Source: Candidatus Fimenecus stercoravium
Lineage (GTDB): Bacteria; Bacillota; Clostridia; Oscillospirales; Acutalibacteraceae
NCBI GenBank assembly: GCA_018711545.1
Contig: DVIC01000029.1
Span: 900 to 64,899, forward strand
Length of the DNA stretch: 64,000 bases
Reading direction: 5' to 3'
The stretch's first letter is position 1. Each line of letters starts with the position of its first letter. The translations under genes were made by a program, and so were the position numbers. The notes beneath the pieces are model-generated. The model searched no databases and was not told the origin of the DNA. It saw only the letters and a list, made by a program, of their open reading frames with translations. Of this stretch, positions 16,670-64,000 are shown piece by piece.

Positions 16670-16881
16670 GTTTGCGCTCCTTTCCGCTTTTGCGCGATTT
16701 CGGGCGGCTGCCCGAAGGTAGTTTTTGCGGAAAAGGTGCAAAAATTCGATATTGTTTTATTTCTGCCGAATCTGAAAAAGATTGGTTTTATCGGCAAGGG
16801 CGGCTTTGGCGGCACCGAAAAAGGCAAACCCTGTTTAAGAGGTCTGCCGTTTGCGCACCGAACCACAGCGCAGCGCATCTC

Positions 16882-17051
16882 GTAGGGACAGCCCTTGCGG
16901 CTGTCCGCGAGCAGAAGCCGGATGTGTGGGGAGACGGCGCGAGCAAGCCCGCGCCCTACCGAAAATCATACGGCGCTCCCGGCGGACCATAACCATGTAC
17001 ACGTTCGGCTTTGCACATCTAATATCTAATGTCTAACATCTAAAATCTAAT
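16882..17051. repeat. composite intergenic repeat: two GTAGGG/CCCTAC hairpin boxes plus a 5-unit heptamer array
   Basis: GTAGGGACAGCCCTTGCGGCTGTCC (16882-16905); GGCGCGAGCAAGCCCGCGCCCTAC (16935-16959); ATCTAAT ATCTAAT GTCTAAC ATCTAAA ATCTAAT (17017-17051). The same modules recur at six other loci in the window. Confidence 0.8.
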
Positions 17052-17769
17052 CCATATATACGTCCACAACGTTTTCATCCGCCTGTAAGGTGGAGACGAT
17101 GATCTTCAGCGCGTTGTCCGTTTTCGGGAAAATAAGCGCCTTGATGGTGGCGGTATCCTTTTTCTTGCGGAATTTCGAGTCGTTGTCGTAAAGGATCTCC
17201 ATGGAGTGCACCACCGTGCCCGTGCGCTTGATGAGCCCCGAGATCTTCGGCACCTGCTCGGCGAGATCCTTGACCTCGATATACAGCGCCTTGCCCGCTT
17301 TGCCGCGGACGATGACCTTTTTGAGCGAATTGAGCGTCATGTAGATGACAAAGGTCGCAACGATCGCGCCCGTTACAAAGCCTGCGCCGACGGCGATGCC
17401 GATGCACGAGACCGCCCACAGGCTTGCCGCCGTGGTGAGGCCCTTGACGGAAAAGCCCTCGCGCAAGATCGTGCCCGCGCCCAAAAAGCCGATACCGCTG
17501 ACGACCTGCGCCGCCATGCGGGTGATGTCCACATTTGCCTGCCCCTCATAGGTCTTGGATATGTATACGGAGGTCAGCATGATAAGCGTTGAGCCGACCG
17601 CCACGAGGATGTGCGTACGGAAGCCTGCGGGGCGGTGCGAATGCTCGCGTTCAAAGCCGATGATCCCGCTGAGCAGCACGCTTAACGCCAGCTTCCACGC
17701 CGCGTCGATCACAAAGCGGAACTCCTGGTTGTTCCAAAGCCACAGCGCGGCTTCCTTGAGCCATTCCAT
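17047..17769 (-). CDS. mgtC: MgtC/SapB-family membrane protein with C-terminal soluble domain
   Basis: GIIGFEREHSHRPAGFRTHILVAVGSTLIM... is the MgtC signature. ATG follows AAAGGAGG. The stop TAG lies inside the heptamer array. Confidence 0.85.
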   Translation of the reverse strand: MEWLKEAALWLWNNQEFRFVIDAAWKLALSVLLSGIIGFEREHSHRPAGFRTHILVAVGSTLIMLTSVYISKTYEGQANVDITRMAAQVVSGIGFLGAGTILREGFSVKGLTTAASLWAVSCIGIAVGAGFVTGAIVATFVIYMTLNSLKKVIVRGKAGKALYIEVKDLAEQVPKISGLIKRTGTVVHSMEILYDNDSKFRKKKDTATIKALIFPKTDNALKIIVSTLQADENVVDVYMD

Positions 17770-17782
17770 TCGTGCGCCTCCT

Positions 17783-20782
17783 TTACACTTTTTTGAATTT
17801 CGGAATGAGCAGCACGACCGCTGCCCAGAAAAGCTCGAAGATCAGGATCTCGGCAATCCCCGCCTGCCCGAGGCTTGAAAAGAAACTGAGCACCGCCATG
17901 AGCAATACGCTAAGCCCCACACCGATATACAATAAGACCTGTGAAAGCCTGTATTTTTCTTCCAGCACGAACGCCGCCAGAAACGCGCGCAGGGCGGCGG
18001 CGGTCGAGCCGCTGTGCAAAATGGCGCAGGGCTCCGGGCGCGGGGGTTCCTCGCAAAGCTCGCGGAACATGTCGCCCGCGACGGGGTTGATGATCTTAAC
18101 AAGGTTGTGCGGCAGGTCAAAGTACTGCTCCACAAGGGCTTCGGTAATATTCGGGTCGGAGGTGCGCAGCAAAATCGTGACGCCGTATTTTTCGAGCCGC
18201 TGCAAATAAACGGAGATTTGTTTGTCGGACGCATATTCCACCACGAACAACGCGGCGGTCTTGCCCTCGACCGCCAAATACAGCACCTCGCAGCCGTCCT
18301 TTTTGAAGCGCTGCTCTTCCTCGCGCGAGGGGGCGTCCACATTGTGCTTCAAAAGCAGGTCGCGGCTGCCCACGAGCACACGCTGGTTATAGATCCAGCC
18401 CGAACAGCCCAGCCGCTCTTCATAGGCAAGCGACTCGACAGGCGGCAGGATCTCACGTTTTTTAAGGATCACTGCATCGAACACGTCGGACAGCGTGCCC
18501 CCAGAGCGGATGGTCATCGCCGCCGTGTATAAGAGCGCCTCGTCCACACGCATTTTATGGTAGGTCTTCATGCCGCAAAGCCGGCAGCGGCAGCCGTCAA
18601 ACAGCTCGGCGGCGTCGAGCACCACGGCGTTCGCCGTGACCGCATCAAAGGCGGCGTCATAGCTGCTCAACAGCGAATTCTGCGCGCGCAGGCGGCGGTT
18701 GACACCGCCAAGCGCTGCGGCAGAGCCGGGCACGGCGGCAACAGGCAGCCCCACAAGCACCGTGGCAGCAATAGCGGAAATGCCCGCAAACACATCGTTT
18801 CGTATAAAGCTCGTGACCGCGCCGATGAGGAAAGCGGCGATAAGCACCGCAGGCAGCGCGTTTGTATATACATCAAAATCGCGGTCGTTGGTTTTGGACA
18901 CGCGCACAAAATCTGTCGGGAACGCGATCTTTTTGGAATAGCGAACGTCCGGATCACCGAGCAGCAGCCCGCGCCCGATCTCAAACGCCGTTTCGGGCGA
19001 TTCAATGCGCGCGACACTCGAAAAACGGCTGCTGCGCTCGGCAACCAGCATAAAGTCCTGGATATCCTCTTTTAAGCCACGGCGCCTGCCTGCATAATAC
19101 AAGGTCAGCAGCAAAAATGCCGGGGCAGAATACAGGGGGATCTCGGTAAGCCGTTCGGGGTACGCCAGCGAAACGGCTGCCTGCACGAGCGCGAACAGCA
19201 GCGCGACCAAAAGCCCGGTTTCCGCTGTGGTGCGGCGGTGCACGATCCCCGAAAAGGCAATTTTCATTTGCGGCAGGCTAACGAGAAAGCCGCAAACCAG
19301 CAGCACCAGATGCAAAGCGCTGTATACTGCGGGATCGCCCCCCAGAAGTGAAAAACCTCCCGTAAAGCGTACGAGCAGCGCCGATGCGGCGGCGGCAAGC
19401 AAAAAGATGAGGCTCAACCACATGCGCACGGTAAAGCCGCGCTTTTCGGATACAAAAATATCAAAGACCGCCTGCGCGTCTTTCGGCCCGTAAAATTCAC
19501 GCAGCACACGTATCGGTGCCCGTTCCGGCTTTGGCGCGCGGCGTCTGCGGCGGCGCGGGGCTTCCTCTTCCTCTTCAAAGGGTTCATCGGTGTCGGCACC
19601 CGCCTGCGTTTCGGGCAGCTCCGGCACGGCGCGGGTGCGCGCTTCCGCTTCATCGGACGGTGCTTCGGCGAGCTCGCCGTTCTGTGCGGCATTTTCGGCA
19701 TTCTCCGCCGCCGAAAGCCCCGGGAACAGGCGAAAATCCTTTGCCCGCTCGCGGCGGCGGCGGCGAAGCGACGCTTCGGCAACTTCCTCGTCGATCTGCT
19801 CCACAGGCTCTTCGTGGGTATCATAGCCGTCGAGCATCATCTGATTCTCCAGCGGCGCTTCTTTATCTTCCGCTGCGAATGCACTGAAATTCCCCGCCTG
19901 TTGTTCGGGGTGTGCTTTCTGATCCTTGAGCACATCCTCCGGGGTCACAAGCGTCGGGATCGCTTGCAGGTCGCCCTGTGCCGCCTCCTCCGCCTTGCGC
20001 ACGATCACGCCCGGCTTTTCGATCGTTTTCGGCGGCATCTGCTCCAGAAGCCGTTTATGCTCCTGTGTTTTTTCCAATTTTTGCTGCGGCCGATTCAAGA
20101 AACGGTCGCGCTTTTCATCCGTCTCCATGACGCGCCGTTTGGGTACGACGGCGTCAAATTCGCCCGTTGTGGTGCGCAAAACGCGGTTGCCGATCTGGTG
20201 TTCGATCCCGCTGCGGTGCACCGCGTGCGACTCCACCTCGTTGAACACACGGGTCTTTTCAATGGAGATCTGCCCGGGCAGATCCTCCGGCAAAGGCTTT
20301 GCTTCTTCTTGGTTCGGCGTCTCCGCCTGCGGGGTCGCGCCCGTAAGCAGCGGCTCGATCTCACCGTCCGCCGCCTGCGGCGGGGCTTCAGGCGACAGTT
20401 CGTCTGCGGACTCCATCCGCGCCGCACGACGCGCAGCCTCTTTGAGCGACACACCCTTTTTCGGCGGTTCACGCTTTTCAAGCTGCGGGGAAACCGTTTC
20501 TTTTCGAGCGGCAGGTTCGGGGACTGCCGCAGGTGCTTCGATTGGTTTTTCCGGCTGTGCTTCGGGCTTTGCACCCGCCGCAGGGTTTTGCGGCATGTCG
20601 GACAAAACGGGGCGCGGCGAAGCCTCCCCGCCGTTTTTTGCGGCGGGCTTTTCTTCGTCGGAAAGCAGCGCATCCACCTCGGAAAGCGACCAGAGCCTGC
20701 TCCCTTTTTCCCCTTGCAGGTGCTTGACGTCGTCTAAAATCTTATCTACCGCAAGCCCCGACAGAATGTCCTTTTGCGACAT
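17783..20782 (-). CDS. P-type-ATPase-like membrane protein lacking all catalytic motifs, with a ~440-aa low-complexity N-terminal extension
   Basis: The C-terminal ~545 aa follow P1B-ATPase order (TM pairs, actuator-like GRGLLLGDPDVRY, P/N-domain-like blocks). At the aligned positions DKTGT is LDAAE, TGD is TSD, GDGxND is HSGSTA, and no CPC is present. Confidence 0.8.
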   Translation of the reverse strand: MSQKDILSGLAVDKILDDVKHLQGEKGSRLWSLSEVDALLSDEEKPAAKNGGEASPRPVLSDMPQNPAAGAKPEAQPEKPIEAPAAVPEPAARKETVSPQLEKREPPKKGVSLKEAARRAARMESADELSPEAPPQAADGEIEPLLTGATPQAETPNQEEAKPLPEDLPGQISIEKTRVFNEVESHAVHRSGIEHQIGNRVLRTTTGEFDAVVPKRRVMETDEKRDRFLNRPQQKLEKTQEHKRLLEQMPPKTIEKPGVIVRKAEEAAQGDLQAIPTLVTPEDVLKDQKAHPEQQAGNFSAFAAEDKEAPLENQMMLDGYDTHEEPVEQIDEEVAEASLRRRRRERAKDFRLFPGLSAAENAENAAQNGELAEAPSDEAEARTRAVPELPETQAGADTDEPFEEEEEAPRRRRRRAPKPERAPIRVLREFYGPKDAQAVFDIFVSEKRGFTVRMWLSLIFLLAAAASALLVRFTGGFSLLGGDPAVYSALHLVLLVCGFLVSLPQMKIAFSGIVHRRTTAETGLLVALLFALVQAAVSLAYPERLTEIPLYSAPAFLLLTLYYAGRRRGLKEDIQDFMLVAERSSRFSSVARIESPETAFEIGRGLLLGDPDVRYSKKIAFPTDFVRVSKTNDRDFDVYTNALPAVLIAAFLIGAVTSFIRNDVFAGISAIAATVLVGLPVAAVPGSAAALGGVNRRLRAQNSLLSSYDAAFDAVTANAVVLDAAELFDGCRCRLCGMKTYHKMRVDEALLYTAAMTIRSGGTLSDVFDAVILKKREILPPVESLAYEERLGCSGWIYNQRVLVGSRDLLLKHNVDAPSREEEQRFKKDGCEVLYLAVEGKTAALFVVEYASDKQISVYLQRLEKYGVTILLRTSDPNITEALVEQYFDLPHNLVKIINPVAGDMFRELCEEPPRPEPCAILHSGSTAAALRAFLAAFVLEEKYRLSQVLLYIGVGLSVLLMAVLSFFSSLGQAGIAEILIFELFWAAVVLLIPKFKKV

Positions 20783-20785
20783 GCC

Positions 20786-21547
20786 TTACACCTCAGCCTC
20801 CAAAGATCTGTGTGAAGAGATTTCATACAGCAAAATGCCCGCCGCCACCGAAGCGTTGAGCGAATTGATCTTCCCTTTCATGGGCAGGGACACGATAAAA
20901 TCGCATTTTTCCCGCACGAGCCGCCCAAGACCCTTGCCCTCCGCACCGACGACCAGCGCGACGCCGCCGGAAAAATCCGTTTTTTTGTAATCCGTGCCGT
21001 CCATGTCCGCACCATAGACCCAGCAGCCGTGCGCCTTGAGTTCGTCGAGCGCCGCGGGCAGATTCGGTACGCGCGCGACGGGGATGTATTCAAGCGCACC
21101 CGCCGAAGTCTTGGCGACCGTCGCGGAAAGCTGTGCACTGCGGCGTTTGGGGATGACCACCCCGTGCGCGCCCGCCGCCTCCGCCGTGCGCAAAACCGCG
21201 CCGAGGTTGTGCGGGTCCTCCAATTCGTCACAAACGACCACGAACGGCGGTTCGCCGCGCGCTTCGGCAACGGCGAGAATATCCGAAAGGCTCGCGTAAT
21301 CGTGCGCGGCGGTGAACGCCGCCACGCCCTGGTGCACCCCGCCGCCGCAGAGGGTATCCAGCTTTTTACGGTCAACCTCTTTGACGACAGCGCCGCTTTC
21401 GCGGCAGGCGGCAGCCAGCCGGCGCACTGCCGGTGCGCGTTCCCCGGCGAGCACATACAGCGTGTCGATCGTGCGGTCGGCGCGCAGCGCCTCCGCTACG
21501 GCGTTGCGCCCGATGATGAGATCTTGATTTTTCGCATCCCGCGGCAT
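20786..21547 (-). CDS. rlmB: 23S rRNA (guanosine-2'-O)-methyltransferase, SpoU/TrmH family (RlmB-type)
   Basis: N-terminal substrate-binding domain (IIGRNAVAEAL) and SpoU motifs DELEDPHNLGAVLRTAEAAG, LVVGAEGKGL and SLNASVAAGILLYE. Confidence 0.9.
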   Translation of the reverse strand: MPRDAKNQDLIIGRNAVAEALRADRTIDTLYVLAGERAPAVRRLAAACRESGAVVKEVDRKKLDTLCGGGVHQGVAAFTAAHDYASLSDILAVAEARGEPPFVVVCDELEDPHNLGAVLRTAEAAGAHGVVIPKRRSAQLSATVAKTSAGALEYIPVARVPNLPAALDELKAHGCWVYGADMDGTDYKKTDFSGGVALVVGAEGKGLGRLVREKCDFIVSLPMKGKINSLNASVAAGILLYEISSHRSLEAEV

Positions 21548-21702
21548 AGCCCGCCCCTTTCACGCCTGTGCGGCACATAGGCATAGTTATTATAAAATTA
21601 TACCATATCTTGTGTGCTTGTACAACTGTTTTTTATACTTTGTTTTCCGGCTGCGCTGCGCGCCGCCCCTGCGAATTGACAGTGCGGAAGAATTCGGATA
21701 GA

Positions 21703-62620: not shown

Positions 62621-64000
62621 TTATTTTTTCTGTTTTTTTCGCTTGATCGCGGCACGCTCGATCGCCTTGACGATCTCTACAAGCGGCACGATGGCAAACG
62701 CGAGCGCCACAGCGATGACGTATTCGAGCAGGCTGATGTGCTCGAACTCAAACGCCTCGCTCAAGAACGGGATATAGATGACCGCAGTGGTCGTCACAAA
62801 GGAGGCGAGCGTCGAGAGCGCCAGATATTTGTTGTGGCTGCCGTGCACACCCATGGAGAAGATCGAACCGCGCTGCGAGCGCATGTTCAGCGAGTGGAAG
62901 ATCTCGCACAGCGACATCGTCAGGAACGCCATGGTCATGCCGTCGGGGCTGTCTACAATTTCCCATTTCCCCGCTTCAATGAAATGTCCGACGAAGTATG
63001 CCGCAAGGGTCAGCAGCGTAACCAAGAGGCCCTGATAGGCGATGTCGCCGCCCACGCCGCCTGCGAAAATGCCGTCGGTGGTCTTGCGCGGCGGGCGTTT
63101 CATAATGTCCTTTTCGCCCTTTTCCATGCTCAATGCAAGTGCCGGGAAGGAGTCGGTCACGAGGTTGATCCACAACAGGTGCACGGGCTTTAAGATCGTG
63201 AAGCCCATGAGGTTCGCGAAGAAGATCGCCAAAACCTCGCTCAAATTGGAGGCGAGCAGGAACTGGATGGATTTGCGGATGTTGTCATAGATGCGGCGGC
63301 CCTCGCCCACGGCGGAGACGATCGTCGCAAAGTTGTCATCGGCAAGCACCATATCCGCCACGTTTTTCGTTACATCCGTGCCGGTGATGCCCATGCCCAC
63401 GCCGATGTCCGCGCTCTTGATGGACGGCGCGTCGTTCACGCCGTCGCCCGTCATGGCGGTCACCATGCCGCGTGCGCGCCAGGCGTTGACGATACGCACC
63501 TTATGCTCAGGCTGTACGCGCGCGTAAACGGAATACTGCGTGACCTTTTCCTTGAATTCCTCGTCGGAAATGTCGTTGAGCTCCGCGCCCGTAATGGCTT
63601 GCGATGCGTCCTCAATGATGCCGAGCTCCTTCGCGATGGCAACGGCGGTATCCTTATGGTCGCCGGTGATCATGATCGGGCGGATGCCCGCGCTGCGGCA
63701 TTCCTCGATCGCCGCCTTGACCTCCGGGCGCACGGGGTCGATCATACCCGTTAAGCCTACAAAGGTCAGGTCGTGCTCGATCGCCTCGGGGCTTTGATCG
63801 TCGGGCACGGCAGCATGGGTGCGGAACGCCCCGGCAAGCACGCGCAGCGCGCGGTCGGCAAACGCCTTGTTGGCGGCGAGCACTGCTTCGCGGTCTGCTT
63901 CGGTCATGGGGACGGATTCGCCGTTCTTAAAGATGTGCGTGCAATGCCCCAGCACGACGTCGGGCGCGCCTTTGGTGAACTGCAAAACGCCGTCAGCGGT
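62621..64000 (-). CDS. cation (Ca2+-type, P2A-like) P-type ATPase, C-terminal ~460 aa (5' part outside window)
   Basis: KGAPDVVLGHC, MITGDHKDTAVAIAKELGI, MTGDGVNDAPSIKSADIGVGMG, and C-terminal TM bundle. The frame stays open to base 64000. Confidence 0.9.
   Translation of the reverse strand, partial: TADGVLQFTKGAPDVVLGHCTHIFKNGESVPMTEADREAVLAANKAFADRALRVLAGAFRTHAAVPDDQSPEAIEHDLTFVGLTGMIDPVRPEVKAAIEECRSAGIRPIMITGDHKDTAVAIAKELGIIEDASQAITGAELNDISDEEFKEKVTQYSVYARVQPEHKVRIVNAWRARGMVTAMTGDGVNDAPSIKSADIGVGMGITGTDVTKNVADMVLADDNFATIVSAVGEGRRIYDNIRKSIQFLLASNLSEVLAIFFANLMGFTILKPVHLLWINLVTDSFPALALSMEKGEKDIMKRPPRKTTDGIFAGGVGGDIAYQGLLVTLLTLAAYFVGHFIEAGKWEIVDSPDGMTMAFLTMSLCEIFHSLNMRSQRGSIFSMGVHGSHNKYLALSTLASFVTTTAVIYIPFLSEAFEFEHISLLEYVIAVALAFAIVPLVEIVKAIERAAIKRKKQKK

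Follow-up and report, generated by a model that had tools for sequence, protein, structure and literature searches.

A CopA-type P1B-ATPase body conserved behind rlmB across the Oscillospirales is probably a pseudo-enzyme

The 64,000-nucleotide stretch of contig DVIC01000029.1 from Candidatus Fimenecus stercoravium that was analysed here (the window) encodes on its minus strand, at 17783..20782, a protein of 999 residues that has the body of a copper pump and appears to have lost most of its chemistry. We consider this protein, referred to below as the pseudo-pump, to be probably a pseudo-enzyme, that is, a CopA-type P1B-1 pump that has turned into a non-pump and is kept for another job as a non-catalytic membrane scaffold or regulator. 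An earlier note on the same DNA had described a P1B-ATPase-shaped protein with every catalytic motif replaced, and had proposed a conserved non-catalytic derivative with a structural, regulatory or scaffolding role. Homology, motif loss, selection and near-universal single-copy occurrence support that proposal, in which the role itself is conjectural. The wording on the motifs was too strong: the catalytic machinery is largely gone, but D723, T874 and D876 are kept.

The core of the pseudo-pump, its C-terminal 567 amino acids (residues ~433-999), is homologous to CopA-type P1B-ATPases in both sequence and predicted fold. Residues 643-884 are matched by phmmer to Legionella CopA (3rfu, E 3e-9). 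Alignment by hhalign to the CopA encoded in the same genome (contig C121) gives a probability of 93.9% for a profile of 29 relatives and, in global mode, of 99.2% (E 1.5e-18) for a profile of 148 representatives, with core positions 1-566, from the juxtamembrane helix through to the final membrane helix, spanning CopA 71-754. AlphaFold2 with the family alignment returns a predicted local distance difference test score (pLDDT) of ~90 at residues 430-999, and mostly below 50 at 1-430; the predicted core consists of two helix pairs, a small beta-rich stub, a third helix pair interrupted at P680, an alpha/beta block and, last, two long helices. Searched against the PDB with Foldseek, this core finds CopA 4bbj (E 3.3e-20) and then 3rfu, with ATP7B, ZntA, CadA and KdpB next. 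All four methods agree with the P1B shape and domain order that had been read from the letters alone, and the eight membrane helices (MA, MB and M1-M6) and the actuator (A), phosphorylation (P) and nucleotide-binding (N) domains stand in canonical order, the A domain as a stub only. Family models do not reach this far: a Pfam search of the whole protein, including E1-E2_ATPase and Hydrolase, yields no family at E ≤ 1, the curated pump models fail (TIGR01525 at 11.6 bits against a cut-off of 346, PRK10671 CopA at 45 against 1316), and no Pfam or NCBIfam model covers the pseudo-pump family. The pseudo-pump clearly descends from a CopA-type (P1B-1) P-type ATPase.

The fate of the catalytic motifs was read from the alignments together with column frequencies in the 148 representatives, and the order-wide figures on the phospho-Asp site come from 62 orthologues. 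The first four membrane helices, MA, MB, M1 and M2 (residues 445-575; 19058..19450, minus strand, as for all features below), align with MA-M2 of CopA, are predicted as helices by AlphaFold2 and are conserved in hydrophobic character only. The actuator domain that follows (residues 576-634; 18881..19057) is ~60 residues long versus ~120 in CopA. At the position of its TGE loop stands EIGRG (18968-18982), with TGE changed to IGR and a family consensus of [ILM][GAS][RK]; the actuator-like region named in the earlier note does align at this loop, but what is left of the domain is a stub. Helices M3-M4 (residues 635-699; 18686..18880) contain the metal-binding CPC position, which reads LPV (18740-18748) within the GLPVAAVPGS already recognised as its replacement. 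P680 is the sole CPC residue kept, in 96% of representatives and 80% order-wide, and the positions flanking it are variable and hydrophobic.

The phosphorylation site lies in the first half of the P-domain (residues 700-733; 18584..18685), where DAAEL (18602-18616) occupies the DKTGT position. The site had been located correctly as VVLDAAELF (18599-18625), but its Asp had been taken as replaced; D723 aligns with the phospho-Asp, and only KTGT is lost. Across the 148 representatives the signature is NAVV[ILV]D[AS]x[DE][LI]F, with D in 83% and [DE] in 90%, and D723 is invariant in the 29 nearer relatives. Order-wide, the pattern D-x(1,2)-[DE] is found in 51 of the 62 orthologues (38 with the acidic partner at D+2 and 13 at D+3), the pair is missing in 11, and five have no Asp at all. 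Such loss would not be tolerated at a catalytic nucleophile.

The homologue of the nucleotide-binding domain (residues 734-853; 18224..18583) is the most conserved part of the protein, and its ATP site is rewritten. SEHPL has become SGGTL, the His being Gly in 82% of the 148 representatives and HP reading GG or GP, and GxG has become RLG ([KR]LG in the family), with the second Gly 100% conserved. The second half of the P-domain (residues 854-926; 18005..18223) has RTSDPN for TGD, with TSD itself at 18155-18163. The earlier reading of LLRTSDPN (18149-18172) as the counterpart of TGD(N) was right as to place, though not as to complete loss: T874 and D876 are kept, D876 being 98-100% and N878 79-90% conserved across the representatives and order-wide. 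The catalytic Lys of P..K falls on G902 in the global profile alignment; K896, considered for that role, was rejected on this pairing. The GDGxNDxP region is deleted or unalignable, leaving H923-x-G925 as the only conserved remnant there. The proposed counterpart ILHSGSTAAAL (17990-18022) has the right coordinates and does lack an acidic hinge, but its positional equivalence is uncertain, the global profile alignment deleting GDGxND and pairing AILHSG with the next strand. Helices M5-M6 (residues 927-999; 17786..18004; AlphaFold2 helices 927-969 and 976-996) have no conserved polar metal ligands, and W986 is their only notably conserved residue.

These losses are not compensated elsewhere. Neither DKTGT nor GDGxND occurs in any of 309 family proteins or 61 order-wide proteins, and canonical motifs in another part of the protein, one way in which the earlier reading could have failed, are absent. 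The DKTG strings seen in some relatives were considered as a real motif and rejected, all being chance occurrences in the disordered N-terminal tail. There is no HMA/CxxC domain, and none of the motif sets of a P1B pump (DKTGT, TGE with a full A domain, CPx with M5/M6 ligands, the N-domain ATP site, and TGD with Lys and hinge) is present as such. Neither does the site conform to a HAD phosphatase: D-A-A-E is not DxD, and the acidic pair of motif IV and an aligned Lys are absent. According to the alignments, the family as a whole lacks the residues expected to bind ATP and metal and to carry out phosphoryl transfer and dephosphorylation.

The gene is nevertheless under strong purifying selection. 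Against orthologues of 81% and 67% identity, the ratio of nonsynonymous to synonymous substitution rates (dN/dS) is 0.15-0.25 for the whole gene, 0.07-0.19 for the pump-like core, 0.03-0.14 for the block of P- and N-domains and 0.23-0.33 for the N-terminal extension. The family is also large. A word-indexed search returns at least 130 clusters, all unnamed or 'hypothetical' and from Candidatus Fimenecus, Ruminococcus and Oscillospiraceae, and an exhaustive profile search of 1.84 billion representatives returns 3,684 clusters (50% identity) at E ≤ 1e-3 and 1,615 at E ≤ 1e-30. Named relatives include an uncultured Oscillospiraceae chromosome (98% identical), Ca. Fimenecus, Ruminococcus sp., Eubacterium sp. 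CAG:180 and Acutalibacter sp. Searched with an order-wide profile built from 17 cores of different families (17-29% identical), 193 of 201 genomes from the window's order, the Oscillospirales, each have a single full-length match (E ≤ 1e-45), and the gene is present in 166 of 170 high-quality genomes, all 30 families and 119 of the 121 genera. The 289 genomes from other Clostridia orders give no full-length match; the best is partial, over profile positions 206-483 (E ≥ 1e-38), and the four partial matches inspected outside the order are canonical CopAs with CPC, DKTGT, TGE, HP, TGD and GDGxND. Decay among orthologues, the other outcome that would have spoken for a pseudogene, is not what is found: orthologues are intact, with one in-frame stop in 193 genomes and low dN/dS. 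That stop is a single in-frame TGA in the orthologue at G026:C38:4863-6554 and may come from an error in sequencing, from recoding or from a purely local loss.

Conservation of the core is of an unusual kind. Its length is steady at 535-596 residues, and between given pairs of genomes its median identity is 19%, versus 52% for RlmB. Of the 120 N-domain columns, 29 are conserved at 80% or more, versus zero or one per membrane helix. Order-wide, only G792, G805 (both 100% conserved) and D876 are invariant or nearly so, and the other well-kept positions are glycines, prolines and aromatics. As read from these columns, the pattern is that of a fold retained for its shape and surfaces and not for a universal active site. 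In a maximum-likelihood tree the pseudo-pumps form one clade (support 100/100) whose stem measures 2.0 substitutions per site and which, with the Cd/Zn-type pump as reference, falls within the CopA type; the sister group among real CopAs, rlmB-linked ones included, is a polytomy with long branches. Terminal branches measure 1.1-2.1 in pseudo-pumps versus 0.2-0.7 in real CopAs, which amounts to evolution 5-10 times faster. The phylogeny thereby shows a single apparent origin of the pseudo-pump gene.

Ahead of the core lies an N-terminal cytoplasmic extension (residues 1-432; 19487..20782) that is mostly disordered and carries short conserved motifs. Its length varies from 1 to 1006 residues among the representatives (median 378) and from ~10 to 540 in the sampled loci, and it is lost altogether in some families with proteins of 545 residues. 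Because these families do without it, the core must, on this comparison, be the presumptive carrier of the basic function. Close to the N-terminus stands an acidic amphipathic motif, LAVDKILDDVKHL (residues 10-22; 20717..20755; family motif [FY]S[ILV]D[DE]IL.E[AVI][KR]), followed by a second similar copy, LWSLSEVDALLS (residues 30-41; 20660-20695). In 75 of 144 representatives the motif lies in the N-terminal 80 residues, usually in the first ~25, versus 1% of shuffled tails, and it recurs across several other families of the order; no other protein of the same genome convincingly carries an N-terminal DDIL-type motif, so it gives no clue to a shared partner. A conserved middle block (residues 165-352; 19727..20290) reads PGQISIEKTRVFNEVE ... 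RFLNRP.Q..EKT.EH ... PPKTIEKPGVIV ... NQM.L.GF ... followed by a basic helix, with 47 invariant columns among nine relatives of 48-67% identity. The extension has no match in Pfam or the PDB, profile searches of the middle block against both returning only chance-level hits (TMA16 at E 0.07, bS21 at E 0.2).

At the locus itself the pseudo-pump gene follows rlmB, the gene for the 23S rRNA Gm2251 2'-O-methyltransferase (20786..21547; TIGR00186 at 247 bits, cut-off 160). The rlmB stop codon TAA, the triplet GGC and the pseudo-pump ATG succeed one another, leaving a 3-nt gap, and a GAGGTG Shine-Dalgarno sequence lies in front; the intact frame, the gap and the ribosome-binding site had all been reported before and are borne out here. 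The two genes share a reading frame across TAA-GGC, and hypothetical read-through of the stop would give a fusion of 1,254 residues. Thirteen nucleotides downstream of the pseudo-pump begins a MgtC/SapB-family gene (17047..17769; PF02308, E 1.6e-40). Because consensus scans place a promoter-like site (TGTACA-16-TATAAT with TG; 21597..21624) ahead of rlmB and a terminator-like hairpin with a T-run (16823..16848) after mgtC, the three genes look like a putative single operon. The same genome encodes two canonical P1B pumps with all motifs, an 855-residue CopA with two HMA domains and a 615-residue Cd/Zn-type pump, so copper and zinc export are handled by other genes. A third P-type ATPase gene runs off the end of the window (~63227-64000, minus strand; G000:C56:64126-66000) with an open frame of 896 residues; its TIGR01525 match is weak (E 4.6e-49, below the cut-off), and the product presumably belongs to a pump class other than P1B.

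Comparison of loci spanning the order shows how exclusive the link to rlmB is. In all 61 other loci (62 of 62 with the window), rlmB is the immediate upstream neighbour in the same orientation; the gap has a median of ~20 nt, 4-nt overlaps are frequent, and no other neighbour is constant. An elongation factor G (EF-G) paralog is directly downstream in 15 of the 61, from at least nine families (L012, L018, L019, L021, L022, L024, L029, L040, L041, L054, L055, L057, L060, L062 and L066); it scores 811-892 bits with NF009381, above the cut-off, and falls below the cut-off of the EF-G equivalog TIGR00484. An order of rlmB, pseudo-pump and this second EF-G may be ancestral in the order. The window's genome has its EF-G paralog on a separate contig, and its clade has the rimP-nusA-infB operon next in line. 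MgtC, considered as a general conserved partner, was rejected: its gene is downstream in only three of the 61 other loci in addition to the window, and the linkage is lineage-specific.

Outside the order the slot after rlmB is mostly filled by a ~170-residue ORF and then a ~210-residue ORF; the two that were read, without a profile search, resemble a YacP/NYN protein and a SigH-type sigma factor. Several other Clostridia (L072, L073, L075, L076 and L087) have, in place of this pair, an ORF of 87-103 residues with a conserved ORF of more than 330 residues behind it (MGISLLDCC...GVNFIGGFSALVHKG...). In another Clostridia family (f65), four of the five genomes with data have a canonical CopA of 736-743 residues on the same strand, -1 to 59 nt after rlmB. 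Because an intact copA fills the same slot there, the gene order suggests that the pseudo-pump may have arisen in place from an rlmB-linked copA. These CopAs (loci L101-L104; G235:C4, G354:C17, G328:C1 and G380:C46) have CxxC, TGE, CPC, DKTGT, HP, TGD and GDGxND, and their arrangement is possibly a living picture of the ancestor of the pseudo-pump locus. The same observation means that linkage to rlmB cannot by itself be read as a functional tie to translation.

Homology to an enzyme, loss of its catalytic residues, purifying selection and wide conservation are the marks of a pseudo-enzyme, and all are found here, inactivity itself being read from the sequence. The pseudo-pump would act without turnover, as a membrane-anchored scaffold or regulator whose former nucleotide-binding domain is probably the main surface to which a ligand or partner binds. 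The long disordered tether at the N-terminus appears in most lineages to end in the acidic amphipathic peptide [FY]S[ILV]D[DE]IL.E..[KR], which would be a second binding element and may catch a cytosolic partner at the membrane. The translation apparatus would be the first candidate partner, given RlmB as a neighbour always and the EF-G paralog often. Several observations weigh against this picture. An Asp at or next to the phosphorylation site with a second acidic residue (D-x(1,2)-[DE]), T874 and D876 are mostly kept, which leaves room for some residual phosphate or Mg chemistry. The tether is absent from families with 545-residue forms and cannot carry the core function, and the intact copA behind rlmB in another Clostridia family means that the rlmB linkage may be inherited gene order.

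The neighbouring genes raise a more specific possibility, that the pseudo-pump acts together with RlmB, the EF-G paralog or both and might, for example, keep ribosomes, a step of ribosome assembly or a translation GTPase at the membrane. Such a role would explain the unbroken pair with rlmB, which persists with short gaps in 62 of 62 loci while the surroundings are reshuffled, and it is consistent with the EF-G paralog that immediately follows the pseudo-pump gene in 15 of 61 loci, drawn from nine or more families, with the rimP-nusA-infB operon next in the window's clade and with Arg- and Lys-rich segments in the tether. However, a canonical CopA occupies the same slot in four of five genomes of another family, so adjacency needs no shared function; the EF-G paralog of the window's genome is on another contig; and the tether's PDB matches to ribosome-associated proteins are non-significant (E 0.07-0.2). 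We regard a translation-linked factor as a tentative and rather unlikely explanation. In its fullest form, which we hold to be just as doubtful, the pseudo-pump would be an order-specific organiser, in the membrane, for the translation apparatus. It would be expressed together with RlmB, and ancestrally also with a second EF-G, and its remodelled N-domain surface and tethered peptide would hold ribosomes, a late step of 50S assembly or a translation GTPase at the membrane. If true, this would be a new cellular use of the P-type ATPase body.

Ligand binding without turnover is conceivable as well: a remodelled N/P pocket could bind a nucleotide, second messenger or metal and, by conformational change, regulate a partner in the membrane, for instance MgtC or a real pump. 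The conservation of the N-domain above all other parts, its polar residues in the nearer family (Y787, E788, S794, R807, H813, E823, Y835 and Y850), the paired acidic residues at the phosphorylation loop with D876 and N878, and the putatively co-operonic mgtC of the window's clade are all in keeping with a switch of this kind. Yet order-wide only structural glycines, aromatics and D876 are conserved, which does not amount to a universal pocket, neither the adenine-binding His/Glu nor the GxG of canonical pumps is left, and MgtC linkage extends to only three of 61 other loci, and we think such a switch unlikely. An enzyme or transporter of P-type or HAD type that is still active at a non-canonical site, D723 with E726, T874 and D876, is less likely again. 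It would account for the invariance of D723 in 29 nearer relatives, for D-x-[DE] in 38 of 62 order-wide proteins, which is reminiscent of HAD motif I, and for the retention of P680 in M4, but the Asp is absent from the site in five of the 62 orthologues and the acidic pair in 11, the Lys, Mg-binding hinge, TGE and ATP-binding His are missing, the actuator domain is halved, and the membrane helices have no conserved polar residues. That the gene is a decaying pseudogene or a mis-called ORF, as lost catalytic motifs and the in-frame TGA of the G026 relative might suggest, has a negligible probability and is refuted by the selection and conservation data: the frame of 999 codons is intact, dN/dS of the core is low, the predicted fold is confident, and intact full-length orthologues persist in 193 of 201 genomes despite divergence to below 20% identity.

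Taken as a probable pseudo-enzyme, the pseudo-pump bears on questions beyond this locus. P-type ATPases are among the best-studied membrane enzymes, and searches of the literature turned up no account of bacterial proteins that, as a family, retain the complete body of such a pump without its chemistry. This one is large, single-copy and near-universal in an order that, by the names of the relatives, includes dominant gut genera (Ruminococcus, Acutalibacter and Oscillospiraceae), and it probably serves a core function now annotated as 'hypothetical'. The family constitutes a natural experiment in what the P-type ATPase scaffold does without ATP. It also provides a practical marker gene for the order, and a warning for annotation that 'P-type ATPase-like' matches here are not to be named metal pumps. 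The same post-rlmB slot being held by an intact copA elsewhere, it may in addition illustrate a pseudo-enzyme arising in place, an origin that is suggested and not firm.

Among known systems the closest in build are the CopA-type P1B-1 ATPases themselves, as represented by Legionella pneumophila CopA (PDB 3RFU/4BBJ), with the same eight-helix topology, order of A, P and N domains, and fold. The pseudo-pump shares with CopA the CPC proline, the threonine and aspartate of TGD and, in this clade, the DKTGT aspartate. Unlike CopA, the pseudo-pump has no HMA/CxxC, has CPC, TGE, DKTGT and HP changed and half of the A-domain deleted, and has lost the Lys and GDGxND. KdpB of the KdpFABC complex, a Foldseek match at E ~1e-10 to 1e-11, provides a precedent for a minimal P1-type architecture that works via a partner membrane protein; however, KdpB keeps all catalytic motifs and hydrolyses ATP, whereas the pseudo-pump has no adjacent gene for a channel-like partner. 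In Salmonella, MgtC is associated with the P-type ATPases MgtB (in the mgtCB operon) and MgtA, MgtB being an active P3B pump. The window is similar in that a putative operon joins a gene of the mgtC family to one resembling a P-type ATPase, but here the linkage is confined to the window's near relatives (three of 61 other loci). Some guanylyl cyclase P4 modules, GC-beta for example, have degenerate catalytic motifs. In print, the closest idea is the P4-ATPase-like module of apicomplexan guanylyl cyclases; such modules, fused to the cyclases of Apicomplexa and ciliates, likewise put a P-type body to use beyond simple pumping (10.1101/2020.09.07.285734, 10.1101/475848, PMC13466520), and one of these papers states in its title that the ATPase activity of P. 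falciparum GC-alpha is essential. The guanylyl cyclase modules are eukaryotic, of the P4 flippase type and fused, whereas the pseudo-pump is bacterial, P1B-derived and stand-alone, with its motifs lost across the whole family.

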